34,931 nt of DNA from Deltaproteobacteria bacterium (GTDB lineage Bacteria; Desulfobacterota; Binatia; Bin18). A program made the position numbers and the translations under genes. The stretch is taken from positions 1 to 34,931 of the forward strand of contig JABFSC010000778.1 of NCBI GenBank assembly GCA_013140885.1, written 5' to 3'. This document shows positions 1,028-16,934 of this stretch, piece by piece. The notes under the pieces were generated by a model. It made no database searches. It saw nothing but the letters and a program-made list of their open reading frames with translations, and had not been told where the DNA came from. Position 1 is the first letter of the stretch; each line of letters begins with the position of its first letter.

Positions 1028-2271
1028 GATTTTCCTTGGGATCGTTGCTGATCGGTATCACGATAGGTGGTGGTGTCGCGGTCGCGGTCTTCTGGGCTGC
1101 GCCGTTTACAACCGTCCGGGTAGCCCAGAACTCACACACCGGAGCGGCGTCGCCCTCATCCGCTCCGGTCACACTCGCTCACGCCAGTCATACCGCCTCG
1201 CCTTCGGCGCCGATGGGAGGGGACGACCCAGCGAAAATCCAGGCGACGCTGTCCGAGAATCAGATGGTGGTGAGTCCCGAACGTCTGCAATCCATCGGCG
1301 TGAAATTCGCCTCTGCCGAACGCCGTCTTCTCGAACGGACCATCCGGACGGTGGGGAGAGTCGAGATCGACGAGCGCCAGCTTGCGCGGGTGAATATCAA
1401 GATCGAGGGCTGGATCGACCAATTACACGTGAACTACACCGGCGAGCGGGTGAAGAAGGACCAACTGCTCTTTACCGTCTATAGTCCAGATCTGGTGGCC
1501 ACCCAACAGGAGTATCTCCTGGCCTTAAAGAGCGGACGGCAGCTCGGCGGCAGCGAATTCCCCGAGGTCGCGGAAGGAGCGAAGTCGTTACTTGAAGTGA
1601 GCCGACAGCGGCTCCAACTCTGGGATGTTCCTGAGCACCAAATCCAGGATCTGGAACGGACCGGCACGGTGCTCAAAGCGCTGCATATCCACTCCCCGAT
1701 TACTGGCACGGTCATCAACAAAGTGGCGATTGCCGGTTTGCACGTGAATCCGGGCGACGAGTTGTACACCATCGCGGACCTCTCGCGGATCTGGATTCTC
1801 GCCGACCTCTACGAGTACGAACTGCCACTGATCAAGATGGGACAGCAAGCGACGGTCACCCTCTCCTACGATCCGGGAACCGTCCTCACCGGGCGCGTTG
1901 GGTTCGTCTACCCCACGATTGATCCCCAAACCCGTACGGGAAAGGTCCGCTTCGAGGTCGAGAATCGCGGCGAACAGTTGAAGCCTGGGATGTATGCCAA
2001 CGTTGCACTTCAAGTCTCGTTCGGGACCCGGTTGGTCGTTCCGCGAGAAGCGATCCTGGAATCAGGGGAGCGCCAAGTCCTCTTCATCCACCACGGCGGC
2101 GGGATGCTCGCATGGCGGACGGCACGGCTCGGCCTCCAAGCTGGAGACTGGGTAGAGGTAGTCGAGGGAGTGAAAGAAGGCGAACACGTGGTCACGTCAG
2201 CCAACTTTTTGATCGACTCGGAAAGCCGCTTGAAGGCTGCGATCAGCGGTATGCGCGGCATGCAACATTAG
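1024..2271 (+). CDS. cusB: RND efflux periplasmic adaptor (membrane fusion protein, CusB-like)
   Basis: 415 aa with an N-terminal membrane anchor (LLIGITIGGGVAVAVFWAAP). The content resembles HlyD/MFP barrel-sandwich proteins (e.g. VNPGDELYTIADLSRIWILADLYEYE). It sits between the OMF and RND genes, with an ATGA overlap with the upstream gene. Confidence 0.85.
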   Translation: MRFSLGSLLIGITIGGGVAVAVFWAAPFTTVRVAQNSHTGAASPSSAPVTLAHASHTASPSAPMGGDDPAKIQATLSENQMVVSPERLQSIGVKFASAERRLLERTIRTVGRVEIDERQLARVNIKIEGWIDQLHVNYTGERVKKDQLLFTVYSPDLVATQQEYLLALKSGRQLGGSEFPEVAEGAKSLLEVSRQRLQLWDVPEHQIQDLERTGTVLKALHIHSPITGTVINKVAIAGLHVNPGDELYTIADLSRIWILADLYEYELPLIKMGQQATVTLSYDPGTVLTGRVGFVYPTIDPQTRTGKVRFEVENRGEQLKPGMYANVALQVSFGTRLVVPREAILESGERQVLFIHHGGGMLAWRTARLGLQAGDWVEVVEGVKEGEHVVTSANFLIDSESRLKAAISGMRGMQH

Positions 2272-2279
2272 GAGGGGCT

Positions 2280-5200
2280 ATGGTTGAACGCATCATCGAC
2301 TTTAGTGCCCGCAACCGCTTCATTGTGCTGCTCCTCGTCTTCGGTTCCGCCGCCGCCGGTCTGTGGGCGTTGAAGAACACGCCGATGGACGCCATTCCTG
2401 ACCTCTCGGATACCCAAGTCATCATCTATACCACGTGGATGGGACGTTCACCGGATCTCGTGGAAGATCAAGTGACCTATCCCATTGTGACCACCCTCCT
2501 GTCCGCCCCAAAAGTCACGGCCGTGCGCGGGTTCTCGGACTTCGGTTTCTCCTACGTCTATGTGTTGTTTGAGGACGGCACGGACCTCTATTGGGCACGA
2601 TCCCGCGTGCTGGAGTACATGAACCAGCTCCTGGGCCGTCTGCCAGAAGGAGTCACCCCTCAGCTCGGCCCAGATGCCACGGCTGTTGGCTGGGTCTTTC
2701 AATACGCGCTTGTCGATGAAAGCGGGCAGCAAGACCTGGCGTCCCTGCGGTCCTTCCAAGACTGGTACTTGCGCTACTGGCTGCGGAGTGTCGATGGCGT
2801 CGCCGAAGTGGCCAGCGTCGGTGGCTTCGTGCGCCAGTATCAGGTGAATTTGGATCCCACCAAGGTCCTCGCCTATAAACTGTCAATCTCAGAGATTATT
2901 GAAAAAATACGGATGAACAATAACGACGTGGGGGGCCGTGTCGTGGAGTTCTCCGGCATCGAATACATGATTCGCGGGCGCGGCTATATCAAATCGACCA
3001 CGGATATCGAGCGGATCGCCTTGAGTGTGAACCAGAACGGCACGCCGATTCTGCTGCGCGATGTCGCCACGGTGCGCTTAGGGCCGGATATGCGCCGCGG
3101 TGTGGTCGAACTCAACGGCCAGGGAGAAGTCGTTGGCGGCATTGTGGTCATGCGCTTCGGCGAAGATGTCCCCAAGGTGATTGCACGCGTGAAGGCCAAG
3201 CTGACCGCGCTCGCACCGTCGCTGCCACCAGGGGTTAAAGTGGTGAGCATGTATGATCGTAGCGACCTCATTCATGAATCCATCGCGACCGCGAATGAGA
3301 ATCTGCTCGAGGAACTCCTCGTCGTGAGTGTCTTGGTCGTGGGGTTTCTCTTGCACCTCCGGTCGGCGCTGATCCCGATCATCATGCTGCCGTTGGCGAT
3401 CCTGATTTCTTTCATCCCCGCGTACTTCCTAGGGGTTGGGCTCAACATCATGTCCATTGGCGGCATTATTGTCGCTATTGGCGATATGGTCGATGCCGCG
3501 ATTATCATCGTGGACAACGCGCATAAGCGGCTAGAAGAGTGGGAACAAGGAGGTCGAGTCGGCGACCGTGCCCAGATTCTCATTGACGCGGCCAAAGAAG
3601 TCGGCCCAGCGATTTTCACCTCCGTATTAGTCATTGCCATTTCGTTTACCCCGGTCTTCGCTTTGGAGGCGCAAGAAGGTCGCTTGTTCAAACCGTTGGC
3701 GTTTACCAACAACCTGGCGATTGCCATGAGTGCCGTGCTGGCGATTACCTTGATCCCCGCGTTACTGGTGCCTCTCATGCGCGGGCGCATCATCCCGGAA
3801 CACCGTCATCCGGTGAACCGGTTCTTACAGCAGCTCTATGCGCCGGTCCTCCGGCTCGCGCTGCGCCATCGTGGGGTCGTCGTCCTGCTTGCCGTTGGGC
3901 TGACCATCAGCATCGTTCCCATCTACCAACGGATGGGCTCCGAGTTCATGCCCCCCCTGTATGAGGGGACCATCTTGTACATGCCGACGACGTTGCCAGG
4001 GATTTCCGTGACCGAGGCGGGCATGCTGCTCCAGCAAATGGATCGGAAGCTGAAAGCCTTCCCAGAGGTTGCCCACGTCTTCGGGAAAGCGGGCCGCGCC
4101 GAAACGTCCACGGACTCCGCGCCCTTCAGTATGATGGAGGTCGTCGTTGGCCTCAAATCGAAAGACCAGTGGCGTCCGGGCATGACGTACGAAGCGCTCG
4201 TTGATGACATGGACAAGACGCTTCAATTTCCGGGTGTGACGAACGCCTGGACGATGCCGATCAAGGCGCGGACCGACATGCTCACCACGGGAGTACGAAC
4301 ACCCGTGGGCATCAAGATTTTTGGCCCTGATCTCAAGCAGATTGAAGAGATTGGTCAGCATATAGAAATGACGGTACGAAATGTCACCGGCACACGCAGC
4401 GTCTACGCGGAACGTGTATCGGGAGGATATTTCCTCGACTTCACCATCAACCGCGAGGAAATTGCCCGGTACGGGTTGGCGGTGATGGACGTCGGTCAGA
4501 TCATCGAATCCGCCATTGGAGGAGAAAACATTGCCACGACCATTGAAGGCCGCGAGCGCTATCCCATCAACGTGCGCTATTTGCGGGAACTGCGGGATGA
4601 TCCAGAAAAACTCAACCGGGTCCTGGTCCCGACACCCACGGGCGCGCAGGTGCCATTAGCGCAGTTAACGACGCTGCGATTCGTGTCGGGCCCACCGATG
4701 ATTCGTGACGAGGATGGCATGCTCTCCGGCTATGTGTACGTCGATATGACGGGGCGCGATGTCGGTGGCTATGTCGAGGACCTCAAACGCGCCGTACAGG
4801 ACAAGGTCACGTTACCGCCCGGCTACACCATCACGTGGTCAGGACAGTATGAGTTCATGCAACGGGTGCAGGCCCGTTTATTGATTGTCGTTCCACTGAC
4901 CATCGCCATTATTTTTGTGCTTTTCTATCTTGAGTTTCGCTCCATCTCCGAGACCCTCATGGTGATGCTCGGTCTGCCCCTCTGCCTGGTCGGCGCGATC
5001 TGGTACCTCGCTCTCTTGGAGTACAACATGAGCATTGCCGTGTGGGTGGGCATCCTGGCATTGGCCGGGACAGCCGCGGAGACGAGCGCGGCCATGCTGG
5101 TGTATTTGGACAGCGCCTGCGCACGCAGGAAAGGCGTAGGTCAGTTGCGGTCACTTCAGGATTTGCTGGAGACCGTACACGCTGGAGCGGTCGAACGCAT

Positions 5201-5432
5201 TCGTCCCATGGTGATGGTGAGTGTGGTCGATATTTTGGGACTCGTACCGACGATGTGGGCGACGGGGACGGGAGCGGACGTGATGAAACGCCTCGCGGCG
5301 CCAACGGTTGGTGGTGTGATGTCTGGGCTTGTCCTTACCCTATTCGTCATTCCGGCTTTGTACGCGATGTGGAAATGGCGCTGGGAAATACAGCCCGCAC
5401 TGGTACGGGCAAACGAAGGAATCCAAGCATAA
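2280..5432 (+). CDS. cusA: Heavy-metal-efflux RND inner-membrane pump (CusA-like, Cu(I)/Ag(I))
   Basis: The ORF track starts at 2112, but ATG 2280 is preceded by AGGAGG (2269-2274) and yields the typical RND N-terminus MVERIIDFSARNRFIVLLL. TM4 carries AIGDMVDAAIIIVDNA, which matches the HME-RND A-x5-D-x6-(E/D) proton-relay motif in its CusA-like form. Length is about 1050 aa. Confidence 0.9.
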   Translation: MVERIIDFSARNRFIVLLLVFGSAAAGLWALKNTPMDAIPDLSDTQVIIYTTWMGRSPDLVEDQVTYPIVTTLLSAPKVTAVRGFSDFGFSYVYVLFEDGTDLYWARSRVLEYMNQLLGRLPEGVTPQLGPDATAVGWVFQYALVDESGQQDLASLRSFQDWYLRYWLRSVDGVAEVASVGGFVRQYQVNLDPTKVLAYKLSISEIIEKIRMNNNDVGGRVVEFSGIEYMIRGRGYIKSTTDIERIALSVNQNGTPILLRDVATVRLGPDMRRGVVELNGQGEVVGGIVVMRFGEDVPKVIARVKAKLTALAPSLPPGVKVVSMYDRSDLIHESIATANENLLEELLVVSVLVVGFLLHLRSALIPIIMLPLAILISFIPAYFLGVGLNIMSIGGIIVAIGDMVDAAIIIVDNAHKRLEEWEQGGRVGDRAQILIDAAKEVGPAIFTSVLVIAISFTPVFALEAQEGRLFKPLAFTNNLAIAMSAVLAITLIPALLVPLMRGRIIPEHRHPVNRFLQQLYAPVLRLALRHRGVVVLLAVGLTISIVPIYQRMGSEFMPPLYEGTILYMPTTLPGISVTEAGMLLQQMDRKLKAFPEVAHVFGKAGRAETSTDSAPFSMMEVVVGLKSKDQWRPGMTYEALVDDMDKTLQFPGVTNAWTMPIKARTDMLTTGVRTPVGIKIFGPDLKQIEEIGQHIEMTVRNVTGTRSVYAERVSGGYFLDFTINREEIARYGLAVMDVGQIIESAIGGENIATTIEGRERYPINVRYLRELRDDPEKLNRVLVPTPTGAQVPLAQLTTLRFVSGPPMIRDEDGMLSGYVYVDMTGRDVGGYVEDLKRAVQDKVTLPPGYTITWSGQYEFMQRVQARLLIVVPLTIAIIFVLFYLEFRSISETLMVMLGLPLCLVGAIWYLALLEYNMSIAVWVGILALAGTAAETSAAMLVYLDSACARRKGVGQLRSLQDLLETVHAGAVERIRPMVMVSVVDILGLVPTMWATGTGADVMKRLAAPTVGGVMSGLVLTLFVIPALYAMWKWRWEIQPALVRANEGIQA

Positions 5433-5515: not shown

Positions 5516-6403
5516 ATGAAAAGAACCTCTCTTCTCTCTCTCGTCATTCTTGCGACACCCGTGTTGGTGGCGGTGCTGTCCATCGAAGGCCGATTCGCGC
5601 ACGCCCAGAGCGGCCACACTCAGGACGCAAGCAAGGATGAACGTGACCAGATGCTGGCCGCGCGGATTCAAGAACTCCCGGTCAAGGTCGTTAGACTCAA
5701 GGCGGCTCTGGCTGAAAACCAGTGGGGGCCCGCGACCGGTGTGGCTGGCGTCACCACGATAGGGATGCCGATGGGGGCGGGCGGCCAGCCGTCTGGCATG
5801 GGGATGATGGAAGGTGGTCACATGGGGATGGGGATGCAAGGTCAGGGAGGTGGCATGTCCTCAATGACAGCCGGCAGCGGCGCCTCATCTGGTTCCGGGG
5901 TAATGGGCGGTATGGACATGATGGGAAAGGTCAGCGGCTCAGGGAGGATGCCCATGTCGTCAGCGCTACCCGGCTTTCCTGGGGCCTCGCATCTGTATCA
6001 TGTTGGCGCCACCGGTTTCTTCCTCGATCACCCTGAGCACATCACGCTCACGATGGAGCAGCAAACAGCGCTGAGTCGTATCAAGGAAAAGGCGCTCTTG
6101 GAGCAGGCAACGACGCAGCGAAAGATCGAGGGGACAGAACAGGAGTTATGGACGTTGACCGGCGCGGAGCAGCCACTTGTCGACAAAGTTGATGCGAAAG
6201 TGAGGGAAATCGAAAAGCTCCGCGCCGATCAGCGGCTCGCATTCATCCGTGCGGTTGGGGAGGCCGCCCAGGCGCTGACGGATGAGCAACGCAAGGCACT
6301 CTTAGGGCAAATCCCCCCCGCGACTCCCAGTACGCCGCAGGCTGCGACTCCCGGCATGCCGTCAGGGGCACCCAACGCCGGTACTGGGATGAGTGATATG
6401 TGA
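5516..6403 (+). CDS. Secreted Met/Gly-rich protein with a C-terminal LTxxQ (CpxP/ZraP/Metal_resist-like) helical domain
   Basis: ATG 5516 follows GGAAAGGAG and gives the signal peptide MKRTSLLSLVILATPVLVAVLSIEGRFAHAQ. A Met/Gly-rich stretch follows (MGMPMGAGGQPSGMGMMEGGHMGMGMQGQGGGMSSM). The C-terminal part has two LTxxQ motifs (LTMEQQTAL, LTDEQRKAL). It is a paralog of 10637-11314. The upstream part of the 5042 ORF overlaps cusA and was rejected. Confidence 0.8.
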   Translation: MKRTSLLSLVILATPVLVAVLSIEGRFAHAQSGHTQDASKDERDQMLAARIQELPVKVVRLKAALAENQWGPATGVAGVTTIGMPMGAGGQPSGMGMMEGGHMGMGMQGQGGGMSSMTAGSGASSGSGVMGGMDMMGKVSGSGRMPMSSALPGFPGASHLYHVGATGFFLDHPEHITLTMEQQTALSRIKEKALLEQATTQRKIEGTEQELWTLTGAEQPLVDKVDAKVREIEKLRADQRLAFIRAVGEAAQALTDEQRKALLGQIPPATPSTPQAATPGMPSGAPNAGTGMSDM

Positions 6404-6417
6404 GAAGTACGGGAGAT

Positions 6418-8328
6418 ATGCGCATGCGTAACAGGTATCATCGCCGTAGCGTGTTCTCACGCCTTCGCGTGGCCGTCGTGTGCCTGGGATTAGCGGTTGC
6501 GACCCCGGGCTATAGCCAAGTGTCGCCCAGTGAGCACGAAGCGCATCATCCCGGTCAAGGACAGACCGCGCCAGTTGCCTCACCGCCCGCGAGTCCGGGA
6601 GCGGCGGGCAATATGGGACAAGGGATGGGGGAGATGATGAAGGGGATGGGTGAGATGATGAAAGGGATGGGGATGTCCCCGCGCAAAGAGCTCTATCCCT
6701 CACTGATGGAGTTACCGGAGCTGCCGCCAGAACGGCGTGTCGAGATGGAGACGTTGGCCCATGAGCGCATGCTGACAGGGACCGCACTGCTCTCTTCGGG
6801 CCTCGACCAACTCGCGCAGGCGACGGCGCAAAAGGACTATTCGGCCATGCAGAAAGCAACCGCGCAGGTGCGGTTCGGTCTCGCTCAGTTCGAGAGTGGA
6901 TTGGCGGCTCACCGCGCGTTGGCCGACGGCAAGGGGGCCCGCGACGTGGCCCTCCAATGGTTCCAACGTACGATGAGCCTCGCGCCGGCGGCCGACGATG
7001 AGTCTCCGCGTGAGATCTTTGGCTTATCTTGGTTTCACTACATGACGATGGTTCTCCTCACGGCATTCGCGATCACGATGATTTGGATGTACTTCCACAA
7101 GATGCGGCGAGCCACGCAGCTCCTTCAAAGCTTGACGGGGGGCATCCCACTCGCGCCGACAACCGCGACTGTTGCCGCCGCGCTGGGACAAACCTCTCCG
7201 CCCGTCAGTGGGCTCGCTTCTCCCCTCGTTCCCGTGGCCGATGGGGCGTTCGTCCCTGCGCAGCCGGGTAAATGGTTAGGCAAACTGCGTGTGGGCCGGA
7301 TCTTCCAGGAGACGCCAGACGTGAAGACGTTTCGGCTCATGAACCCCCTTGGCGGCGTGCTGCCGTTCGCATACCTCCCTGGGCAGTTTCTTACCGTGAC
7401 CGTGACCCCGGACGGCAAGCTGGTGAAGCGCGGCTACACCATCGCCTCCTCGCCGACGCAGCATGACTACGTGGAGATTACCGTCAAGCACGAAGAGGGG
7501 GGAGTGGTGTCGGGCTTCCTCCACGCCCGTGTTCAGGAAGGGGATCTGTTGGAGTTTTCCGGTCCCTCAGGCTCCTTCATTTTCACCGGGCGGGAGTGTC
7601 GGTGTATCCTGCTCATCGGCGGCGGCGTGGGCATCACGCCGCTGATGAGCGTCCTTCGCTACCTGACCGACCGCGCCTGGCCGGGGGACATCTTCCTCAT
7701 GTACGGTTGTAAGAGCCCCCGCGACATCATCTTCCGCGAAGAACTGGATTACCTCCAGCGGCGCCATCCGAACCTGCGCGTGGTGATCGTCGTGTCGCAT
7801 GCCGAAGGGACGGATTGGAAGGGGCCGACAGGCTTCATTACCAAGGAACTGATCAGCCAGTCCGTGCCGGATATCGCGTCGCGCTATGTGCACATCTGTG
7901 GTCCCGTGCCCATGATGGAAGCGGCGAAGAAGATCCTGGCCGAACTCGGCGTACCAAAGGAGCGCGTCAAGACTGAGGCGTTCGGTTTGGCTATGGGGAA
8001 GCCGGAGCCGACGATGCCGCTCGCCGAACTTCCGCTTGGGAAGGAAGAGAAGGCCGCCCAGATAGCCCTCCCCGTAGTTACGTTCTCTCTGTCGAATAAG
8101 TCGGCCCCGTTTGCGCCTGACAAGGTCATCCTCGATGTGGCGGACGAGATCGGCGTCGAGATCGACAACTCCTGTCGCGTGGGTACCTGCGGGACTTGCC
8201 GGGTGAAGCTGCTGGCCGGCCAGGTGACCATGGCCGTCGAGAATGGCCTGGAGCCCGGCGACAAGGAGCAGGGCATCATCCTAGCCTGCCAGGCCAAGTC
8301 TACGGGCAACGTGACGGTGGAGGCGTGA
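6418..8328 (+). CDS. Membrane-anchored FNR-like oxidoreductase (FAD/NAD(P)H domains plus C-terminal plant-type 2Fe-2S) with an N-terminal periplasmic Met/His-rich domain
   Basis: The N-terminus looks like a signal peptide (RLRVAVVCLGLAVATPGYSQ). It is followed by HEAHHPGQGQ and GMGEMMKGMGEMMKGMGM, then a helical region and a single TM helix (WFHYMTMVLLTAFAITMIWMYF). FNR motifs are RGYTIAS (RxY[ST]), GGVVSGFL, LLIGGGVGITPLMS and ICGPVPMM. The ferredoxin motif is C-x4-C-x2-C-x29-C (CRVGTCGTCRV...LACQ). The start is uncertain: GTG 6400, ATG 6418 or ATG 6424. Confidence 0.85.
   Translation: MRMRNRYHRRSVFSRLRVAVVCLGLAVATPGYSQVSPSEHEAHHPGQGQTAPVASPPASPGAAGNMGQGMGEMMKGMGEMMKGMGMSPRKELYPSLMELPELPPERRVEMETLAHERMLTGTALLSSGLDQLAQATAQKDYSAMQKATAQVRFGLAQFESGLAAHRALADGKGARDVALQWFQRTMSLAPAADDESPREIFGLSWFHYMTMVLLTAFAITMIWMYFHKMRRATQLLQSLTGGIPLAPTTATVAAALGQTSPPVSGLASPLVPVADGAFVPAQPGKWLGKLRVGRIFQETPDVKTFRLMNPLGGVLPFAYLPGQFLTVTVTPDGKLVKRGYTIASSPTQHDYVEITVKHEEGGVVSGFLHARVQEGDLLEFSGPSGSFIFTGRECRCILLIGGGVGITPLMSVLRYLTDRAWPGDIFLMYGCKSPRDIIFREELDYLQRRHPNLRVVIVVSHAEGTDWKGPTGFITKELISQSVPDIASRYVHICGPVPMMEAAKKILAELGVPKERVKTEAFGLAMGKPEPTMPLAELPLGKEEKAAQIALPVVTFSLSNKSAPFAPDKVILDVADEIGVEIDNSCRVGTCGTCRVKLLAGQVTMAVENGLEPGDKEQGIILACQAKSTGNVTVEA
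6622..6672 (+). repeat. In-frame 21-bp tandem repeat (2.4 units) encoding GMGEMMK
   Basis: gggatgggggagatgatgaag (6622-6642), gggatgggtgagatgatgaaa (6643-6663) and gggatgggg (6664-6672), read directly from the sequence. Confidence 0.9.
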
Positions 8329-8329
8329 G

Positions 8330-9088
8330 ATGAAAGAGCACGAGCCTATGGTCGTCGGAGGGTTGGTGGCCCTGCTGGTGGTACTGTGGCTAGGCTTCCG
8401 GTTCCACGTCTCCCCCAGCTTTGCTGGCAGTTTCTGGGGTGGCGTGTTCGGGGTATCGGGCGCGCTGCTCATGCTCTTGTCCGCGGTGTACCTGGTGGTC
8501 AAGCGAGTTCCGCCCCTTAAATTATGGGTCACCGGCCGAGTCTCTATGCAGACCCTGCTGACCTGGCACATGTATACCGGCATCGTGGGCGCCCTCCTGG
8601 GCTTGCTGCACACGGGTCATAAGTTCAACAGCCCCCTCGGAATCGCCCTGACGGCGGTGTCGCTCCTCGTCGTCCTGAGCGGGTTCGTCGGGCGCCATTT
8701 GATGAAGCAGATTTCCTTGGAGATCCGCGAAAAGAAGGAAATGCTGACCAGTTTAGAGTTGGCCTACCGACAGACGGTGGGCGAGGTGGCCGCGCATCCC
8801 GATCTGACCACCATCCTGTGGCCCCTGGCGGGATTCTGGTCACGCCTGGTGGTGGGGCTCCTCGTGACGACTCCGACGGAATCGGGCTCGCTGCCCGCCC
8901 CCGTTCGTGCGCTCCGGCTGGCTGATGCCATCGCTGACCTGGAGTACGCCATTAGGACTCACGAGACCTTCAAACGATGGTTCGCCGCTTGGCTCAAGGT
9001 TCACATCCTCACCGGCTTCGTTCTGTATAGCTTGCTGGGCCTGCACATCTGGGCGGGCATTTACTTTGGGCTGAGGTGGTTCGCATGA
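8330..9088 (+). CDS. Polytopic membrane protein, putative di-heme b-type cytochrome (ferric-reductase/MsrQ-like logic)
   Basis: GGAGG (8319-8323) lies 6 nt before ATG 8330, which is 1 nt after the upstream stop. The protein has about 6 hydrophobic helices. Two helices carry His pairs exactly 14 residues apart within a shared pattern: WHMYTGIVGALLGLLH and VHILTGFVLYSLLGLH. Confidence 0.6.
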   Translation: MKEHEPMVVGGLVALLVVLWLGFRFHVSPSFAGSFWGGVFGVSGALLMLLSAVYLVVKRVPPLKLWVTGRVSMQTLLTWHMYTGIVGALLGLLHTGHKFNSPLGIALTAVSLLVVLSGFVGRHLMKQISLEIREKKEMLTSLELAYRQTVGEVAAHPDLTTILWPLAGFWSRLVVGLLVTTPTESGSLPAPVRALRLADAIADLEYAIRTHETFKRWFAAWLKVHILTGFVLYSLLGLHIWAGIYFGLRWFA

Positions 9089-9927
9089 AACTATGGCCAT
9101 TCGTAATCGCGGCGGTGGCTCTCGTCGTGGCGTTGTTTGGTGGGTTTTATTTCCTGCGAGTCCACCCTGGAGGCCTGCGTTCGGGGGTATTGGACAAGAC
9201 GGCCTGGCAACGCATGGCCGTTCCCGGCGCGTTGTCCAACGCACACGCATTTTTGGAACACAACTGCGCCGCCTGTCATACTCCGGTGACGGGTGCCGAC
9301 GACATCAAGTGCATCGGCTGCCACGCGAATGACGAAGCTCTGCTTCAGCGTCAGCCCACCGTGTTTCACGCGACGATCGGATCCTGTGCCTCCTGCCACG
9401 GCGAACACCAGGGCGTCGATACACATGTGGGGGAGATGGATCACGCAAAGTTAGCGAAAATCGCCCTTACTTCATTGACAACCACTAGCCCCCAGAGTGA
9501 GCAAAAGCGAGGGAGCACGGACCTTGTGACATGGCTCCGTCCGCACCAAGACATGGTAGCGGCCACGAGCCACCCACAGCTGACTCCGCTGGAGGCGACG
9601 TTGGACTGCCGAACTTGTCACGGTACTAAGGACCGTCACGTCGGACTTTTCGGGGGAGACTGTGCCGCGTGTCATGGGACCGCGGCGTGGACGATCGCTG
9701 CATTCCGCCACCCCTCGCCGCGCTCACTTGACTGCGCCCAGTGTCATCAGGCTCCGCCCAGCCATTACATGGAGCACTTCAACATGGTTTCGAAAAGAGT
9801 CGCTGGGCAAGACAACGATGCGAGTAGTCAGTGTTGCGGCCCAGTGCAAGTCAACCAGTGCTACCGCTGTCATCAGACGACGTCGTGGAACGACATCAAG
9901 GGGGTCGGATGGTACAAGCACCACTGA
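9085..9927 (+). CDS. Membrane-anchored heptaheme c-type cytochrome
   Basis: ATG 9085 overlaps the upstream stop (ATGA) and follows GAGGTGG. The N-terminal anchor is MKLWPFVIAAVALVVALFGGFYFL. There are seven CxxCH motifs: CAACH, CIGCH, CASCH, CRTCH, CAACH, CAQCH, CYRCH. Confidence 0.9.
   Translation: MKLWPFVIAAVALVVALFGGFYFLRVHPGGLRSGVLDKTAWQRMAVPGALSNAHAFLEHNCAACHTPVTGADDIKCIGCHANDEALLQRQPTVFHATIGSCASCHGEHQGVDTHVGEMDHAKLAKIALTSLTTTSPQSEQKRGSTDLVTWLRPHQDMVAATSHPQLTPLEATLDCRTCHGTKDRHVGLFGGDCAACHGTAAWTIAAFRHPSPRSLDCAQCHQAPPSHYMEHFNMVSKRVAGQDNDASSQCCGPVQVNQCYRCHQTTSWNDIKGVGWYKHH
9700..9927 (+). repeat. Copy 1 of a 228-bp dispersed direct repeat (3' end of the cytochrome c gene)
   Basis: Aligned by eye to 18931-19158 with 9 mismatches in 228 bp. 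Similarity ends at both borders. Confidence 0.9.
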
Positions 9928-10062
9928 CAAGGAGAAGGAAGGAACGAACGGCGGCAAGGCTTTCTCAGGACGGTGTTGGCCAGGCACGATCGCCAGCGCG
10001 GCGCCGCGCTCTACCGCCGGACCATGGCAACCCGAGCGACGAGGTCGATCCTACGTCCCTCC

Positions 10063-10083
10063 GAGGCGGGCCGCGCCCGCCTC
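10063..10083 (+). other. Perfect 9-bp GC-rich hairpin (gaggcgggc-cgc-gcccgcctc) downstream of the cytochrome gene; possible transcript end or stabiliser
   Basis: The inverted repeat is read directly from the sequence. No U-tract follows, so an intrinsic-terminator call is weak. Confidence 0.3.
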
Positions 10084-10156
10084 GCTGCTCCAGTTCCCAC
10101 GTTGTTCGGGATAATGCATTCGCATTACCCGTAGATAGAGAATGGAGGAGAACGCC

Positions 10157-10471
10157 ATGATGAAATACAGAATCGTTACACTCGCAATTGTTGCGCTCTT
10201 GTCCGTGTCTTTCCCTGCCTCATCCGTTCTGGCCGCCGAGATGGTTGGTGTCATGATGAAGGATGGCAAGATGATGATGATGGACGGCAAGGCGACGGGA
10301 CCGATGGACCACGAGATGACGATGCCCGACGGCCACAAGATCATGCCTGACGGCACGATGAAAATGAACGACGGCAAAGAGATGCGCATGCAGGAAGGCC
10401 AGATGATGACGATGGACGGGAAGATGCTGGAGGGTGGCAAGGACATGAAAATGGAAGGGATGGACAAGTAG
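10157..10471 (+). CDS. Small secreted, extremely Met-rich repeat protein (M-x-DGK type repeats), probable periplasmic Cu(I)/Ag(I) binder
   Basis: GGAGG (10144-10148) lies 8 nt before ATG 10157. The signal peptide is MMKYRIVTLAIVALLSVSFPASSVLAAE. The mature part reads MMKDGKMMMMDGK...MPDGHKIMPDGTMKMNDGKEMRMQEGQMMTMDGKMLEGGKDMKMEGMDK. Confidence 0.8.
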   Translation: MMKYRIVTLAIVALLSVSFPASSVLAAEMVGVMMKDGKMMMMDGKATGPMDHEMTMPDGHKIMPDGTMKMNDGKEMRMQEGQMMTMDGKMLEGGKDMKMEGMDK

Positions 10472-10636
10472 CTTCTCAGAGTCGTCGGATGTTGTGATGA
10501 CGCCCGGCGTCTTGGCGGCTAGCGGAGCTTGGTAAGGCTTCGCTCCGCCAGTTCGCTGGGCACCCTTGGCGGCTCTTTTGGGGGATAGCACCCGTCAACC
10601 CAATCAAACCAGCCGACGCAAAGAAGGAGAAGAGCA

Positions 10637-11314
10637 ATGAAACGTTACTTAGTGTTGTCAATCGTCGCCCTATTCGCGGCATCTCTCAATGGCGTCACAT
10701 GGGCCGATATGGATGAAATGGGCGCCATGCAAAGCAGCGGCGGCGCCATGCCCGCCGGAGCACCGGCAGCGGGAATGAGCGGGGGTGGTAGCATGGGCAT
10801 GGACAAGATGGAAATGGTCGGGATGATGGGCATGGGCGCGATGAGCAGGGGCGCGATGAGCAGCGGCGCAGCGGGCACTATACCGCAGTCCGCACTGCCC
10901 GGCTTCCCCGGCGCGTCGCACCTTTACCACATTGGCAGTACGGGCTTCTTCCTCGATCACCCGCAGCACATCGGGCTCACGATCGAGCAGCAGGTGGCGC
11001 TCAACAAAGCCAAAAAACAAGCGTTACTCGCGAAGAGCAGGGCCGACCGCGCGATCGGGCAAGCCGAGCAGGAGCTGTGGATACTGACCGCCGCCGATCA
11101 GCCGGACGCCGCGAAAATCCAGGACAAGATTGGCGAAATCGGAAAGCTGAAGAGCGATCAACGGATCGCGTTCATCCGCGCCGTAGGCGACGCGAGCAAC
11201 CTCCTCACCGACGACCAGCGCAAAAGCCTCACTGGTTTCGCGCCACCAGCGTCCGCGAATTCCATGGTAGCTCCCGATGCCGCGATGCCCGCTGGCGGCA
11301 TGAAAGACATGTGA
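10637..11314 (+). CDS. Secreted Met/Gly-rich LTxxQ (CpxP/ZraP-like) protein, paralog of 5516-6403
   Basis: AAGGAG (10623-10628) lies 8 nt before the ATG, and a signal peptide is present. It shares the block ALPGFPGASHLYH[VI]G[AS]TGFFLDHP[EQ]HI.LT[MI]EQQ.AL ... DQR[LI]AFIRAVG[ED]A...LTD[ED]QRK[AS]L and a C-terminal M[SK]DM with the 5516 gene. Confidence 0.8.
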   Translation: MKRYLVLSIVALFAASLNGVTWADMDEMGAMQSSGGAMPAGAPAAGMSGGGSMGMDKMEMVGMMGMGAMSRGAMSSGAAGTIPQSALPGFPGASHLYHIGSTGFFLDHPQHIGLTIEQQVALNKAKKQALLAKSRADRAIGQAEQELWILTAADQPDAAKIQDKIGEIGKLKSDQRIAFIRAVGDASNLLTDDQRKSLTGFAPPASANSMVAPDAAMPAGGMKDM

Positions 11315-11340
11315 GCGGACAACACACCCGGAGGCGAAAC

Positions 11341-11436
11341 ATGGACAAGGCCAATTCGAAACCAGTCGCATTCTCCTGCCACGCGCCCAAGACGAAGGCG
11401 GTATTCGTCGCAGGCGCCTTGAACGATTGGAAGTGA
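11341..11436 (+). pseudogene. 31-codon remnant resembling the N-terminus of a CBM48/AMPK-type glycogen-binding (E-set) domain protein
   Basis: MDKANSKPVAFSCHAPKTKAVFVAGALNDWK* matches the start of the V.F...A..A..V.[LV]AG.FN.W pattern. The ORF stops right after the conserved Trp and the rest of the domain is absent. Confidence 0.4.
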
Positions 11437-11489
11437 GTTGAGGAAGAACCTGCGCCACACACCAAGTAAAGTGAAGGAGTATCACCACT

Positions 11490-12029
11490 GTGAATCGTAT
11501 GAGAACATCAAGAGCACTATCATTAACCACAATTGTCCCTCTGCTCCTTGCCGGCGCCCTTTACGCGCAAGCACAGACCAATGCCTCCTCCGGCGGCATC
11601 ATCCGACGCGCGGGGGAACCAGACTGCGTCCAGATCACGGAGGACAACAAAGAAATGGATCGCGCCGTGCAGACGGCGCACAAGACGGTGAACGAGTTCG
11701 TCGCAGTCCTGCGTTCGCCCGAGGGTAATCAGCGCCGCTTCGCCGTCAAGAAACCGTTCGTCGAAGGGAACAAGGTCGAACACAGTTGGCTGAACGAGGT
11801 TTCCTTCGACGGCCGCCTTTTCCACGGAAAGGTTGACAATGAACCAGTGGACCTCAGGGGAGTGCACCTCGGACAAGAAGTCTCGGTACCGTCGGACGAG
11901 ATTTCCGACTGGATGTACGTTCAGGATGGGCGGCTGGTCGGTGGCTACACCATCAGGGCGATGTACCAAAACATGTCGCCCGCCGAGAAGCAGCGGTTCG
12001 AGAAGGACGCAGACTGTCAAATCCAGTGA
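11490..12029 (+). CDS. Secreted DUF2314-like (YegJ-like) protein
   Basis: GTG 11490 lies 10 nt after AAGGAG. A signal peptide ends at LYAQAQ. The core FAVKKPFVEGNKVEHSWLNEVSFDGRLFHGKVDNEP...ISDWMYVQDGRLVGGYT resembles my recollection of the DUF2314 pattern. Confidence 0.6.
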   Translation: MNRMRTSRALSLTTIVPLLLAGALYAQAQTNASSGGIIRRAGEPDCVQITEDNKEMDRAVQTAHKTVNEFVAVLRSPEGNQRRFAVKKPFVEGNKVEHSWLNEVSFDGRLFHGKVDNEPVDLRGVHLGQEVSVPSDEISDWMYVQDGRLVGGYTIRAMYQNMSPAEKQRFEKDADCQIQ

Positions 12030-12621: not shown

Positions 12622-13974
12622 ATGAAAACAGCATCTGAAATCCCGACCAAATCCGCGAAGCGAGAACCGGGGATGCAACTCCTCTTGCTCCTCTTAATCC
12701 TTCTCCCGCTCATCATTCTTTTCCTCCTGCCAGGCGGGGGAATGCTGCACGGCGGCATGTTTTTCTGGATGGGGCTGCTGCTCTGCTTCTGGCTGCTCTC
12801 GATGCTCTTAGGAACGAGAGCGGACAGCGCGCCTGTGGCGACCACGCGTCTCTTGAGCGCAGAAGAGCACCCTGTGGCGGTGAAAGAGGTGATGGACGTT
12901 CGCTTCGCTGAGGAAGAAAATGGCGTTCGGATTTTCCGCGGTCGGCTGCGCGAGCCAGCAGCCGCTGTCTATGCCAAACTCAAGCGCGCTCTCGGTGCCG
13001 AATCCGCGCCGATGGTACAGGCCGACGAGCAGTTCGGCGCTTCCATCTTGCTCGTGCCGGAGCCAGCCGAGAAGGCTGTTGCGGAGCAGCACGCCAGGCT
13101 GTGGGTGAACGGGTTGTTGTTCGCACTCACCGTCGGTACGACTACCTGGGCGGGCGCGGCGCATCAAGGCGTCAATTTGCTCCGCGAGCCGGGACGATTC
13201 ACCGTCGGTCTGCCCTACGCGCTCGGACTACTAGCGATCCTCGGCGTTCACGAATTAGGTCACTACTTCATGGCCCGGCATCATCGCATCCGCGTCACGC
13301 TGCCTTACTTTATTCCGATGCCGTTCGCACTGGGTACGTTTGGCGCATTCATCGAAATGCGCTCGCCCGCCGAGAACCGGCGCGCGCTCTTTGATGTCGC
13401 CGTCGCCGGGCCGCTGGCGGGCTTGGTCATCGCAATCCCGGCGCTTGTGATTGGGCTGCGCTCGTCAGTCATCGTTGCGGCGGCGGCTGAGCCAGCGGCA
13501 GGTATGGCGCACGGCGGAGCCTCTGTCGGCTCGTCGGTGCTACTCGCCTTTCTCGCGAAACTCTCGCTCGGTCCCGCGCTGCTCGAAAGCCATGTGCTGC
13601 AACTCAGCCCGCTCGCCTTCGCCGGCTGGCTCGGCCTCATGATCACCGCCCTCAATCTGCTCCCCATTGGTCAGCTCGACGGTGGCCACATCGCCCGCGC
13701 CATGTTCGGACGCCGCGCGGGTGAAACGATCGGCAGTGTTGCTATGTGGACGCTGCTGCTGCTCGGGCTGTTCGTTTGGCCGGGGCTGCTGACGTGGGCG
13801 ATCATCGTATTTTTTATTGCTGGTCGCGGCGCGCCGCCGTTGGACGATTTGACGCCGCTCACTCCGTCGCGCCGATGGCTGGGCTATGCGGCTTTCGCCA
13901 TGCTCGCCCTCATTCTTGCCCCGCTGCCGCACACGCTATGGGGTGCGGCGGGTATCCACTGCCCTTACATGTAA
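12622..13974 (+). CDS. Site-2 protease family zinc metalloprotease (peptidase M50)
   Basis: HExxH lies in a TM segment (VHELGHYFMARHH) and the second M50 signature is NLLPIGQLDGGHI. The protein is polytopic and hydrophobic. Confidence 0.85.
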   Translation: MKTASEIPTKSAKREPGMQLLLLLLILLPLIILFLLPGGGMLHGGMFFWMGLLLCFWLLSMLLGTRADSAPVATTRLLSAEEHPVAVKEVMDVRFAEEENGVRIFRGRLREPAAAVYAKLKRALGAESAPMVQADEQFGASILLVPEPAEKAVAEQHARLWVNGLLFALTVGTTTWAGAAHQGVNLLREPGRFTVGLPYALGLLAILGVHELGHYFMARHHRIRVTLPYFIPMPFALGTFGAFIEMRSPAENRRALFDVAVAGPLAGLVIAIPALVIGLRSSVIVAAAAEPAAGMAHGGASVGSSVLLAFLAKLSLGPALLESHVLQLSPLAFAGWLGLMITALNLLPIGQLDGGHIARAMFGRRAGETIGSVAMWTLLLLGLFVWPGLLTWAIIVFFIAGRGAPPLDDLTPLTPSRRWLGYAAFAMLALILAPLPHTLWGAAGIHCPYM

Positions 13975-14195: not shown

Positions 14196-14468
14196 ACACG
14201 CCCGCTCGAAGCATCGCGGAGCGCGGTTGCTCGAAATTGATGGAAGAACCACGGCAAAATTGATGGGAGACAGCAACAACCAAGAAAGAAACCTGAATCC
14301 ACGGCCAAGCATTGAATTTGCCGGTTTCGGACTCAGTTTATGTGGCTTAGCGGCAATCTCCATTTTCACCCATTGGGTGCTGTCTCGGTATTGCGCTAGG
14401 GACCGCTGTCATTGGGAGAAACTGCATTTTTGATTCTTTACCCGTGGATTCAGGAAAGAAACATAACC

Positions 14469-16934
14469 ATGAAAGAATCGCAATCCGTGACCATAGATCC
14501 CATCTGCGGAATGACCGTGGACGAAGCAACCGCTCTCCACGCGGAACGCGAGGGAAAGACGTTCTACTTTTGCAGCGACCACTGTCGGCTCAAGTTTCGG
14601 TCAGCGCCGGCGAGCGTGACGCATGCGGAAGTGCCTCCCGGCGGCTCTCAGTCTCCTCTCGCGCACGAGCACGGTGACCGTTCGACGGCGTGGTCCTCGA
14701 CGCAATATTTTTGCCCGATGTGCCCTGGCGTGGAATCCGACCAGCCCGGTGACTGTTCGCAATGCGGGATGGCGTTGGAGCGCAATCCCGCACGGGTCGG
14801 GCTGGTGTCAGGAAAAACGATTTACACCTGTCCGATGCACCCCGAAGTGCGGCAGGACCATCCCGGCGATTGCCCCAAGTGCGGCATGACGCTGGTGCGG
14901 AAGACCCCGACGGCGAGCCCGGATCAAGTGGAGGACGCTGAGCTGCATGACATGACGACGCGCTTCTGGATCGGTGCGGCGCTGACGTTGCCGGTGTTTT
15001 TCCTGGCGATGGCGCACGTGATCCCGGCGCTGGCCAGGCAGTCCTGGGCGGATAGTCACACCTCGCGCTGGATACAACTTGCGCTCACCACGCCCGTGGT
15101 CTGGTGGGCGGGCGGGCCGTTCTTCCGCCGGGGCTGGCGCTCGGTCGTGACGCGTCACTTGAACATGTTTACGCTGATCGCCCTCGGCGTGGGCGCGGCG
15201 TTCGTCTTTAGCGCGGTGGCCATGCTCGCGCCCGACCTGTTCCCGCATACCATGCGACACGAGGGCAAGGTGGCCATCTACTTTGAAGCCGCCGCGGTGA
15301 TCGTTGTTCTCGTGTTGCTGGGGCAGGTGCTCGAGCTCCGTGCCCGCAGCCGTACCGGCAGCGCCATCAAAGCGTTGCTCAACCTCGCCCCGCCCATGGC
15401 GCGGCGGGTCACACCGGGGGGCGATCATGAAGTCTCGCTCGACCAAGTGAAAGTCGGCGACCAGTTACGGGTTGTTCCAGGTGACAAGGTGCCTGTCGAT
15501 GGCGTGGTCGTGGAAGGCCATTCCAATGTGGAGGAATCCATGATCACCGGCGAACCGCTTCCGGTGGAAAAGAGCGTCGGCGACAAAGTGACGGGCGGCA
15601 CCGTCAATGGAACCGGCAGTTTCGTCATGCGCGCCGAGCGGGTCGGGAGCGACACGTTGCTCGGGCAGATCGTCAACATGGTTGCCGAAGCCCAGCGCAG
15701 CCGTGCACCCATTCAAGGTCTCGTGGACAAGGTCGCGAGCATCTTCGTGCCGGTGGTGCTGGCGGTGGCAGTGCTTACTTTCGTTGTCTGGCTATGGCTG
15801 GGGCCAGAGCCAGAGCTCGCGCACGCCATCGTCAACGCCGTTGCGGTCCTCATCATTGCCTGCCCGTGCGCCCTCGGCCTGGCCACGCCCATGTCCATCA
15901 TGGTCGGCGTCGGACGCGGTGCGCAGGAAGGCGTGCTCGTGAAAAACGCCGAAGCGCTCGAACGGTTGGAGAAAGTCACCACGCTCGTCGTGGACAAGAC
16001 GGGCACCCTGACGGAGGGCAAACCTAAGCTCGTGGATGTCCTGCCCACCGGCGGTTTCGAGACGAAGGAATTTCTGCGGCTCGCCGCCTCACTGGAGCAG
16101 AACAGCGAACACCCACTCGCCGCCGCGATTGTGCAGGGCGCGAAGGAGCAAGGCATCGCCATCGAGACGGTAAAAGACTTTCGTTCGGTGACGGCGGGCG
16201 GTGTTCTCGGCACCGTCGCTGGTCGCGCGGTGATGATCGGCAAGCCGGCCTTCCTGCGAGACAAAGGCATTGCCAGTCTGGAGCCGCTCGAAGCCTCGGC
16301 CGTGCAACTCCAGGAGGAAGGCAAGACCGCGATGTATGTCGCCGTGGATGGCAAGCCAGCGGGAATCCTCGCCGTCGCTGACCCGATCAAATCGACCACC
16401 CCCGAAGCCATCCGCGAACTCCACGCGCTCGGTTTGAAACTCGTCATGCTCACCGGCGACAACCGCCGCACCGCCGCCGCAGTAGCGAAGACACTTGGCC
16501 TCGATGCGGTGGAAGCGGACATCGAACCCGCCGGCAAAGTCAGCCATGTGAAGAAGCTGCGGGCGGAAGGCAACCACGTCGCGATGGCTGGCGACGGCAT
16601 CAACGACGCCCCCGCCCTGAGCGAAGCCGAAGTCGGCATTGCGATGGGCACGGGCACCGACGTGGCCATGCAGAGTGCTGGAGTCACCCTCGTGAAAGGC
16701 GACCTCCGCGGTATTGCCAAAGCGATTCGCCTCAGTCGCGCCACCATGCGGAATATCCGGCAGAATCTGTTCTTCGCCTTTGTCTACAATGCGCTGGGAA
16801 TTCCGGTGGCGGCGGGCGTGTTGTACCCGTTCTTCGATTTGCTGCTCAGCCCGATCATTGCCGGTGCCGCGATGAGCCTGAGTTCAGTGTCCGTCATCAG
16901 CAACGCCTTGCGGCTGCGAAAGGTGAGGCTTTGA
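14469..16934 (+). CDS. copA: Cu(I)/Ag(I)-translocating P1B-1-type ATPase with an N-terminal TRASH/YHS-like domain plus two CPM[CH]P...C..CGM metal-binding modules
   Basis: Catalytic motifs are [15 protein letters not shown] and the TM CPC ([12 protein letters not shown]). The P1B-1 signatures are N-x6-YN-x4-P ([14 protein letters not shown]) and MxxSS (MSLSSVS). The N-terminus has CGMTV...YFCSDHC, then [24 protein letters not shown] and [24 protein letters not shown]. The ATG 14469 start was chosen over the 14412 ORF start. Confidence 0.92.

Follow-up and report, generated by a model that had tools for sequence, protein, structure and literature searches.

A candidate electron conduit from NAD(P)H to the periplasm, built around a putative di-heme cytochrome b and carried in bacterial copper islands

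What might a flavin reductase, a polytopic membrane protein and a multiheme cytochrome do together among genes for copper efflux? The question is raised by a stretch of 34,931 nucleotides (nt) from a metagenome-assembled genome (MAG) labelled "Deltaproteobacteria bacterium" (assembly GCA_013140885.1, contig JABFSC010000778.1, positions 1 to 34,931 of the forward strand), referred to here as the window, in which three consecutive genes, termed A, B and C, stand directly after cusCBA. Comparative analysis indicated that the trio is very probably a conduit carrying electrons from NAD(P)H to the periplasm and that it probably serves in the handling of copper or silver. A more specific proposal, which is put forward tentatively, is that of a dedicated and horizontally mobile NAD(P)H:periplasmic-metal reductase constructed around a new di-heme b family, in which protein A would present the metal on the outside via a His/Met domain.

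The three tightly coupled genes described in an earlier note on this DNA were borne out by direct reading of the sequence. Gene A (6424-8328) ends with a TGA at 8326-8328 and is separated by a single nucleotide from the ATG of B at 8330 (B, 8330-9088), while the stop of B and the start of C (9085-9927) are joined in an ATGA overlap at 9085-9088; all three genes, as all other features given below for the window, lie on the forward strand. Candidate starts of A are GTG 6400, ATG 6418 and ATG 6424, the last of which has a GGGAGA box 7-8 nt on its 5' side and is used by the gene callers and by the NCBI protein of the MAG (P0271, 634 residues), with which the sequence of A is identical. The Met-rich gene 5' of A ends at a TGA at 6401-6403.

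Conservation of this arrangement was assessed with a pattern scan of one genome per species, which revealed 207 stretches encoding a relative of B, and 80 of these were fetched as loci (L005-L084) and searched with the window proteins by tblastn. The labels of the 80 loci, from MAGs and isolates, comprise Planctomycetota, Nitrospirota, Nitrospinaceae, Verrucomicrobiota, Omnitrophota, Binatota, Bacteroidota and Alpha-, Beta- and Gammaproteobacteria, although some of the MAG labels may stem from mis-binning. Synteny, the check proposed in the earlier note, was maintained across several phyla with B adjoined by A in 77 and by C in 76 of the 80 loci, most of the misses falling at contig ends, and most A-B and B-C junctions in related loci had gaps of -4 to +4 nt. 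The module is also present on plasmids, as B matched 54 records of PLSDB at 59 places, C matched the same 54 records at 59 places, and half of these trio plasmids (27/54) were predicted to be conjugative.

Protein B (252 residues) is the putative di-heme cytochrome b of the trio and was the least recognizable by standard families, with no Pfam or NCBIfam match above threshold. It is nonetheless a sizeable family with more than 1500 homologs in a set of 5.8 billion proteins and 533 representatives at 50% clustering. An alignment of 46 homologs (27-81% identity) contained only eight invariant residues: M1, H80, H94, G118, H225, H239, G247 and W250. The only His among them are H80, H94, H225 and H239 (46/46; codons 8567-8569, 8609-8611, 9002-9004 and 9044-9046, respectively), compared to H26 and H97 that were kept in 34 and 38 of the 46 homologs. 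The two members of each pair are 14 residues apart, H80/H94 on transmembrane (TM) helix 3 and H225/H239 on TM5. The AlphaFold2 (AF2) model, with a predicted local distance difference test (pLDDT) score of 91.5, displayed five TM helices, with two further long helices forming a hairpin at residues 124-217. Mean Lys+Arg counts per segment in the 46 homologs were 2.0 for the N-terminus, 5.5 for the TM2-TM3 loop and 12.8 for the hairpin, against 0.8-1.2 for the remaining two loops and the C-terminus, and the periplasmic loops are only 6-9 residues long. By the positive-inside rule, B is therefore predicted to have its N-terminus inside, its C-terminus outside and its hairpin in the cytoplasm, so that TM3 and TM5 would run parallel and bring the two His pairs to matching depths. 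In this topology, H80 and H225 would lie close to the cytoplasmic side of the membrane, and H94 and H239 close to its periplasmic side. Such an arrangement of His is that of the two bis-His hemes of cytochrome b and ferric-reductase-domain (FRD) proteins. The suggestion that B is a polytopic protein with two His pairs placed like bis-His heme b ligands was thereby strengthened, the four His being the sole invariant ones in the family.

Searches of the 46 B members at a lax threshold gave weak matches to DUF4405 (32/46, best E 5.2e-05), Ferric_reduct (24/46, best E 1.7e-03) and Ni_hydr_CYTB, the prokaryotic cytochrome b561 family (12/46, best E 2.4e-05). These are recurrent and mutually consistent, each being under its cut-off, and the three families are ones that we take to belong to a single Pfam clan. 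Comparison of B with the ferric-reductase-domain, b561 and YedZ families, as the earlier note had recommended, gave a weak recurrent similarity and failed on the family thresholds and on a matching solved fold. By these profile scores, B is strictly not a member of FRD, b561 or YedZ; it seems best regarded as a new and divergent family among the two-heme cytochromes b, with putative heme binding.

In about 16 of the 80 loci, B is fused at its C-terminus to a DUF547 domain of approximately 290 residues with a conserved Cys pair (L021, L022, L038, L040, L045-L047, L052, L062, L064-L067, L069, L078 and L084; protein P0122), the fused homolog lying at about 10001-11640 in the loci with full flanks. 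This DUF547 domain is predicted to be periplasmic because the C-terminus of B is predicted outside. A further apparent fusion, of the FNR-2Fe2S part of A with B in protein P0182 (465 residues, from the representative library), was rejected as Rosetta-stone evidence and taken as a probable frameshift artefact, since its Arg/Gly/Pro-rich junction reads like an out-of-frame translation.

Protein A (634 residues) supplies the reductase. Its cytoplasmic half matched Pfam families above their cut-offs in the order expected of FNR-like reductases with a C-terminal plant-type ferredoxin and can be placed among them: FAD_binding_6 (E 2.9e-14) and NAD_binding_1 (E 1.3e-22), covering the flavin adenine dinucleotide (FAD) and NAD(P)H modules at 7312-7932, followed by Fer2 (E 2.3e-13) for the 2Fe-2S domain at 8101-8298. 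The RxYT, GGGVGITP and CGP motifs and the cluster ligands C584-x4-C589-x2-C592...C622 were invariant in 32 A homologs. The nearest NCBIfam families were GbcB (E 5.2e-74), Hcr, PaaE and BenC, which are reductases handing NAD(P)H electrons to a partner protein in oxygenase systems. A scored under every equivalog cut-off, with GbcB best at 249 bits compared to the required 500 and PaaE, Hcr and BenC also below. The earlier description of A as a NAD(P)H/FAD reductase with a 2Fe-2S cluster on the cytoplasmic side of a single TM helix accordingly held for its domains and was incomplete, having overlooked that the first approximately 200 residues comprise a signal peptide and a conserved periplasmic His/Met-rich domain.

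The signal peptide ends in AxA followed by an invariant Gln in many homologs and is succeeded by an invariant EH-x-x-HHP motif (H38-x-x-H41-H42-P, 6535-6549; invariant in samples of 24 and 32 homologs) at the predicted mature N-terminus, which is a candidate Cu(II) site. The motif is followed by a Met/Gly-rich stretch that varies in length among homologs (MGQGMGEMMKGMGEMMKGMGM, 6610-6675), a candidate Cu(I)/Ag(I) site. His clusters are the preferred ligand type for Cu(II), and Met-rich stretches for Cu(I). The remainder of the periplasmic part is a conserved helical domain (KELYPxLMxLP ... FESGLAAHRAL ... ALQWFKREMNLLP, 6685-6993) for which AF2 gave a helical bundle of residues 102-135, 139-168 and 172-183, with pLDDT 88-95 over residues 100-160; the full-length model had a pLDDT of only 65 and the 2Fe-2S domain was modelled poorly. 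A single TM helix (7018-7095) follows, its outer, periplasmic end marked by an invariant H205 and its cytoplasmic end by MYFxKMRRA. As the periplasmic N-terminal domain and the TM helix precede the reductase module, A is predicted to cross the membrane, the reductase lying inside and a domain that looks suited to metal binding lying outside. A profile search of the N-terminal domain against PDB sequences found no relative, and an origin as a diverged Metal_resist (LTXXQ) domain was rejected as hhalign aligned only 26 columns, comprising the signal peptide and the first His residues.

The full FNR-2Fe2S architecture of A was retained in the great majority of loci. Two variants depart from it: one (L049, 8943-9983) has the periplasmic domain, TM helix and 2Fe-2S domain without the FNR module, and the other (L053, 9183-10004) has the periplasmic domain and TM helix only, which may be a truncation or an assembly error. 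Since the former keeps its 2Fe-2S domain without the FNR module, it suggests that A makes contact with B through the 2Fe-2S cluster. Judged from these alignments, the constant core appears to be the periplasmic/TM module of A together with B and C, with the 2Fe-2S domain being the part retained next to B. The cytoplasmic linker that joins the TM helix to FNR also has a short Cys-rich insertion in some A homologs (L046 and L050), for example CCGDSEDACP, which is possibly an extra metal site.

Protein C (280 residues) was confirmed as a membrane-anchored periplasmic cytochrome c with seven CxxCH motifs, as first noted, and these are conserved across its homologs: all seven occurred at conserved positions in 73 of 75 sequences, the others being one with six motifs and one truncated fragment. 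In 34 aligned sequences there were exactly seven further invariant His (H54, H95, H108, H120, H185, H209 and H227). The equal numbers imply seven bis-His, six-coordinate hemes with none predicted to be open, and C would be an electron wire and not a catalyst because the seven CxxCH motifs and seven distal His leave no free heme site. Most homologs terminate in YKHH; four loci in which B has a C-terminal extension (L038, L049, L062 and L074) encode a C that ends differently, without YKHH. Similarity of C to Cytochrom_c3_2, Cytochrome_C7 and NrfH was faint and under cut-offs, and a profile search against PDB sequences gave nothing significant.

The genomic context connects the trio with copper. 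Scoring at least one copper-related family within 10 kb, 65 of the 80 loci had a copper-related neighbour, as did 40 of the 44 loci with full 10-kb flanks. General genome statistics, rather than a computed background, would place the chance expectation at a few percent at most, there being a handful of such genes per genome. Co-occurrence with copper genes, a survey for which the earlier note had called, is thus conserved across phyla and plasmids and is not a peculiarity of the window. The commonest neighbour was a Met-rich Metal_resist protein 5' of A (54/80), and unbiased clustering of all neighbouring open reading frames (ORFs) identified glutamate dehydrogenase (29 of the 80 loci), Met-rich multicopper oxidase (22), TolC-like protein (21), a small CBM48-like protein (20), P1B ATPase, CusA and a His/Cys-rich small protein (13 each), DUF1622 (11), YHS protein and ICMT-like methyltransferase (10 each), and M50 peptidase (9).

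Individual replicons displayed the same company. Plasmid pH3-D-14 of Legionella pneumophila carries the trio with ICMT, DUF2933, glutamate dehydrogenase and multicopper oxidase, and pBBta01 of Bradyrhizobium sp. BTAi1 has a Spy/CpxP protein, A, an "iron reductase", a "cytochrome c3 family protein", multicopper oxidase and CopB. In Sphingobium chlorophenolicum pSPHCH01, a MerR-type heavy-metal regulator lies just 5' of the trio in the same orientation, with a divergent resistance-nodulation-division (RND) efflux operon, and DUF1622 and a copper-binding four-helix bundle are located downstream. Methylophaga pinxianii has a P1B ATPase, DUF2933, ICMT, DUF411 and the trio followed by a complete ccm operon, and Spirosoma linguale (Bacteroidota) has three DUF305 genes, the trio, multicopper oxidase and a copper ATPase.

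Several recurrent companions merit mention in their own right. The glutamate dehydrogenase (Glu/Leu/Phe/Val dehydrogenase family) is often directly 5' of A on the same strand (e.g., L017 6477, L050 6646 and L068 6634) and also occurs in the Legionella plasmid island (L085 12792-14063), with none in the window; it could be a source of NADPH or a bypass of copper-sensitive glutamate synthesis and was counted neither way. DUF1622 membrane proteins are encoded directly after C in their 11 genome loci (e.g., L079 11536) and also in most Sphingomonad plasmids, with plasmid positions at L087 10360-10803 and L088 11536-11943 and none in the window, and may be a fourth component in those lineages. The Methylophaga pinxianii plasmid encodes complete ccmABCDEFGHI approximately 3 kb downstream of the trio (L088 14751-20753), as if the island carried its own heme-attachment machinery. 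On the conjugative Legionella pneumophila plasmid pH3-D-14 (L085 1-6138), a second F0F1-type ATP synthase operon with an AtpZ/AtpI gene is directly upstream of the trio.

The module can be compared with known transmembrane electron-transfer systems. FRE and STEAP reduce Cu(II) besides Fe(III). NOX, FRE, STEAP and MsrQ with Fre resemble the path proposed for the trio in passing electrons from cytoplasmic NAD(P)H and flavin via two stacked bis-His hemes b to an acceptor beyond the membrane, and B shares with them two like-oriented TM helices that each carry a His pair with a spacing of 13-14 residues. Unlike the FRD enzymes, the reductase A is a separate bitopic polypeptide that adds a 2Fe-2S cluster and has a periplasmic domain of its own. 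In place of the six-TM FRD fold, five TM helices are predicted for B, together with a hairpin of about 90 residues in the cytoplasm, and the chain would run on to a heptaheme cytochrome c instead of stopping at the outer heme b. Foldseek of B against the PDB returned no FRD, STEAP or NOX chain, and no MsrP-type molybdopterin domain was found in the scanned window genes or seen among the inspected recurrent neighbour families.

A second likeness is to the PepSY_TM proteins FoxB, which reduces ferrisiderophores, and CrpH, which match the reading of B as an inner-membrane protein with two bis-His hemes that passes electrons to a periplasmic metal substrate; no B member matched PepSY/PepSY_TM even at E values up to 10. 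CrpH of Bordetella is a proposed copper reductase (PMC13038864). Both serve metal acquisition or oxidase assembly and their donor is unknown, whereas the context of the trio is resistance, with a donor (A) and an acceptor wire (C) encoded alongside. Bacteria also have a dedicated enzyme for reducing Cu(II) to Cu(I) in CcoG (cited in PMC13038864), which readies copper for a Cu(I)-specific transporter. CcoG differs in having 4Fe-4S clusters, acting on the cytoplasmic side in cbb3 oxidase assembly, and lacking homology to A, B and C.

The individual proteins also have partial counterparts. C resembles NapC, NrfH and CymA in its N-terminal membrane anchor and the c3/c7 cytochromes in having bis-His c hemes in short c3/c7-like modules; it differs from NapC/NrfH/CymA in having seven hemes rather than four (NrfH TIGR03153, 20.3 bits against a cut-off of 134.2) and in its donor, which would be a separate di-heme b protein, while those cytochromes bind quinol themselves. 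In its cytoplasmic half, A agrees with GbcB, PaaE, BenC and Hcr in motifs and in the order FAD, NAD(P)H, 2Fe-2S; it is set apart from them by an N-terminal extension of approximately 280 residues (signal peptide, periplasmic domain, TM helix and linker) and by partners that are cytochromes instead of an oxygenase. A transmembrane conduit of the metalloreductase type is known in kind; its composition here, the B family and the placement in copper islands are, as far as could be found, undescribed.

Full-text literature on copper, multiheme cytochromes, the neighbouring DUFs and the annotation names yielded no paper assigning a function to the trio, and the databases offer generic names for its members, namely "hypothetical protein", "iron reductase", "cytochrome c3 family protein" and "ferredoxin-NADP reductase". 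The view that the composition had not been described thus stood with respect to function and needed correction in that homologs of B and C had been noticed before as orf1 and cyt (PMC3102683). These lie beside the HynSL hydrogenase genes of the Deep ecotype of Alteromonas macleodii and were treated only as possible hydrogenase accessory genes, with no link to A or to copper islands (PMC3102683). Their identity with B and C is our inference from the gene order on the related replicon pAM1A3 of Alteromonas macleodii (L091 7225-13944), which reads Metal_resist-like gene, A, B, C, a 1224-bp ORF, hynD, hupH and hynS, the hydrogenase small subunit having a twin-arginine translocation (Tat) signal. 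Cytochrome C might be the physiological partner of this hydrogenase. A hydrogenase stood beside the trio in only one of 87 related loci, that of Alteromonas, and a hydrogenase link was rejected as a general explanation. A merR-copA-cupredoxin-DUF2933-ICMT cluster has been described in copper-resistant Alteromonas without mention of the trio (PMC8478169).

In the proposed mechanism, A, B and C would form one inner-membrane complex moving electrons outward. NAD(P)H in the cytoplasm would reduce the FAD and, through it, the 2Fe-2S cluster of A; electrons would then pass to the inner heme b of B (H80 + H225), to its outer heme b (H94 + H239) and onto the seven bis-His hemes c of C in the periplasm. 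There, Cu(II) held at the His sites, namely EHxxHHP of the A periplasmic domain and the YKHH tail of C, would undergo one-electron reduction to Cu(I), which would be caught by Met-rich segments, both in A and in the neighbouring Metal_resist and DUF6799 proteins. These Met-rich carriers would hand Cu(I) to CusCBA, and periplasmic Cu(II) would in this way be made a substrate for efflux. CusCBA exports Cu(I)/Ag(I), and both it and the Met-rich carriers accept only the reduced ion.

Complex formation, electron direction and the identity of the acceptor are all deduced rather than observed. The outward direction is suggested because FNR-ferredoxin relatives oxidize NAD(P)H, the potentials run downhill and the membrane potential favours outward movement of electrons. 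Having no catalytic heme by this prediction, C would most probably pass its electrons to a partner protein or to a simple one-electron acceptor. Cu(II) is favoured as that acceptor because the context is copper-specific across phyla, because the outer domain of A joins a His cluster suited to Cu(II) with a Met-rich stretch suited to Cu(I)/Ag(I), and because carriers and CusCBA take only the reduced ion. Reduction of Cu(II) to Cu(I) to feed the Met-rich carriers and CusCBA is accordingly a plausible, if still doubtful, account in which the substrate is presumed.

Several points weigh against this account. For the B of the window, no heme b family reached its threshold, the score with Ferric_reduct being only 11.7 bits (E 0.29; cut-off 28). 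A Foldseek comparison of its model with the PDB found no similar solved structure (best E 0.54), the top matches being ABC-transporter helices and coiled coils with query-normalised template modelling scores (TM-scores) of at most 0.41, and the long hairpin probably dominates the fold comparison; a profile search of B against PDB sequences was likewise without a significant match, the TM domain of a cyanobacterial NOX5 reaching only E 2.5. NAD(P)H need not be the only donor, as two A variants lack the FNR module, and the trio abutting a periplasmic NiFe hydrogenase in Alteromonas suggests other donors or roles in that lineage. Multicopper oxidase, which catalyzes the opposite reaction, is present in 22 of the 80 loci and on several plasmids, creating the risk of a futile cycle unless Cu(I) is channelled. 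In addition, free Cu(I) is more toxic than Cu(II) and producing it is risky.

Among the alternatives to Cu(II)-to-Cu(I) reduction, the one that survives best uses the same wire and takes Cu(I)/Ag(I) completely to Cu(0)/Ag(0), the metal being immobilized as periplasmic particles instead of effluxed. Bis-His hemes, of which C would have seven and no catalytic site, are usually of low potential, and the standard potentials of Ag+/Ag0 (+0.8 V) and Cu+/Cu0 (+0.52 V) are far above that of NAD(P)H. The trio is flanked by Met-rich proteins of the Cu(I)/Ag(I)-binding type, and in Alteromonas it is found next to a periplasmic hydrogenase of a class generally known to plate out metals via c3-type cytochromes. 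Deposition is nevertheless unlikely, given that tight linkage to CusCBA and P1B ATPases points to export, that the potential of tightly bound Cu(I) is much lower, and that a build-up of particles in the periplasm would be harmful.

Slightly less likely again is a wire that powers periplasmic repair or protection under copper stress, with targets such as the B-fused DUF547 domain or copper-generated oxidants. The DUF547 fusion with its conserved Cys pair in about 16 of 80 loci could be read in this way, transmembrane electron supply has well-known precedents in MsrPQ and DsbD/ScsB, and the most frequent neighbours have CpxP/Spy-like chaperone domains. Most loci lack DUF547, however, and no Msr, peroxidase or thioredoxin-fold partner was found in the window or in the recurrent neighbour families; the seven C hemes, all predicted to be six-coordinate, would also offer no peroxidase-type site.

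It is also rather improbable that B and C constitute a quinol-fed periplasmic branch in the manner of NapC/CymA or MsrQ, with A as an accessory protein for copper binding or sensing whose reductase is not the main donor. Many di-heme b families that B weakly resembles are known to oxidize quinols, and the A variants without FNR (L049) or without both cytoplasmic domains (L053) keep the periplasmic domain and TM helix. Against this, the loci by a wide margin retain the complete FNR-2Fe2S module, in translational coupling with B, the shortest variant may be a truncation or assembly error, and the large conserved cytoplasmic hairpin of B would suit the docking of a soluble domain.

A general reductase of ferric iron or other metals in an incidental copper neighbourhood is very improbable. 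The name "iron reductase" given to some B homologs by NCBI and UniRef, together with the weak Ferric_reduct matches, is what recommends it; no experiment behind the name was found in the literature, iron-uptake genes were absent from the recurrent neighbours, and copper genes recur across phyla and plasmids. Reversed flow from periplasmic Cu(I), or from H2 via the Alteromonas hydrogenase, through C and B to NAD(P)+ on A, which was raised by the earlier note and could draw on the trio adjoining hynD-hupH-hynS on pAM1A3, is the least credible of all, as the standard potential of Cu2+/Cu+ (about +0.15 V) is too high for it to reduce NAD(P)+ (-0.32 V), inward electrons would oppose the membrane potential, the hydrogenase neighbour occurs at that one locus in 87, and Orf1 and Cyt, mapped to B and C by gene order, are unnecessary for maximal HynSL activity in Escherichia coli, for which Orf2 is needed (PMC3102683).

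The module is widespread and mobile in cultured and pathogenic hosts, including plasmids of Legionella pneumophila, Sphingobium and Alteromonas. Gram-negative copper defence in the textbooks consists of P1B ATPases, CusCBA-type Cu(I) efflux, and multicopper oxidases with periplasmic chaperones, and to our knowledge a dedicated periplasmic reductase is not part of it. If the proposed Cu(II) reduction is correct, the trio would be a reducing arm missing from models of efflux, oxidation and sequestration, and copper and silver resistance islands would be read differently. The transmembrane electron-transfer cytochromes would gain a new family as well, and the trio would provide a compact NAD(P)H-to-periplasm wire of bioelectrochemical interest, and could explain why Alteromonas keeps a periplasmic hydrogenase of unknown role beside the trio.

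The remainder of the window is in keeping with a copper island. The position directly after cusCBA and the secreted Met-rich proteins on both sides, as claimed from the sequence alone, were corroborated by domain searches. The efflux genes at 47-5432 encode a CusC/TolC-like outer-membrane efflux protein (47-1027; Pfam OEP E 2.7e-35; probably the C-terminal part of a gene beginning before the window), a CusB-type periplasmic adaptor (1024-2271; HlyD_D23 E 8.4e-81 with a CusB alpha-hairpin domain) and a CusA-like RND inner-membrane pump of the AcrB/CusA type (2280-5432; ACR_tran E 5.8e-218). Between these and A lies a secreted Met/Gly-rich protein with a CpxP/Spy/ZraP-like Metal_resist domain (5516-6403, start from the gene caller; E 3.9e-06, under the Pfam cut-off), and C is followed by a secreted Met-rich DUF6799 protein (10142-10471; E 3.5e-19) and a second secreted Met-rich Metal_resist protein (10637-11314; E 1.6e-05, also under the cut-off) that is 56% identical to the first. 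Further downstream are an M50 site-2-protease-like membrane peptidase (12622-13974; Peptidase_M50 E 4e-24), a P1B-type heavy-metal ATPase with YHS and HMBD N-terminal domains (14412-16934), an ICMT-like membrane methyltransferase (20022-20753; Pfam ICMT/PEMT), a recurrent companion of copper ATPase clusters, and a second P1B-type heavy-metal ATPase with HMBD domains (26036-28246), the ATPases being identified by domain scan. Promoter and terminator scans around the trio gave counts no better than shuffled sequence.

Only four tandem repeats were identified in the window (6320-6366, 6620-6672, 10301-10414 and 10825-10869), all of them within Met-rich or low-complexity coding sequence of the upstream Metal_resist gene, A, the DUF6799 gene and the second Metal_resist gene, respectively. 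The repeat in A has a 21-nt unit and encodes part of the Met/Gly-rich stretch, and that of the DUF6799 protein has a 24-nt unit. This placement suggests that slippage at the repeats lengthens and shortens these segments.

A and B have their closest homologs, at 72-91% identity, in Gemmataceae and other Planctomycetota, while the source MAG carries a deltaproteobacterial label; either the label of the bin is doubtful or the island was transferred. An ORF fragment at 11311-11466, between the second Metal_resist gene and a DUF2314 gene, matched only the first approximately 50 residues of a CBM48-like family of about 120 residues and looks like a truncated remnant or pseudogene.

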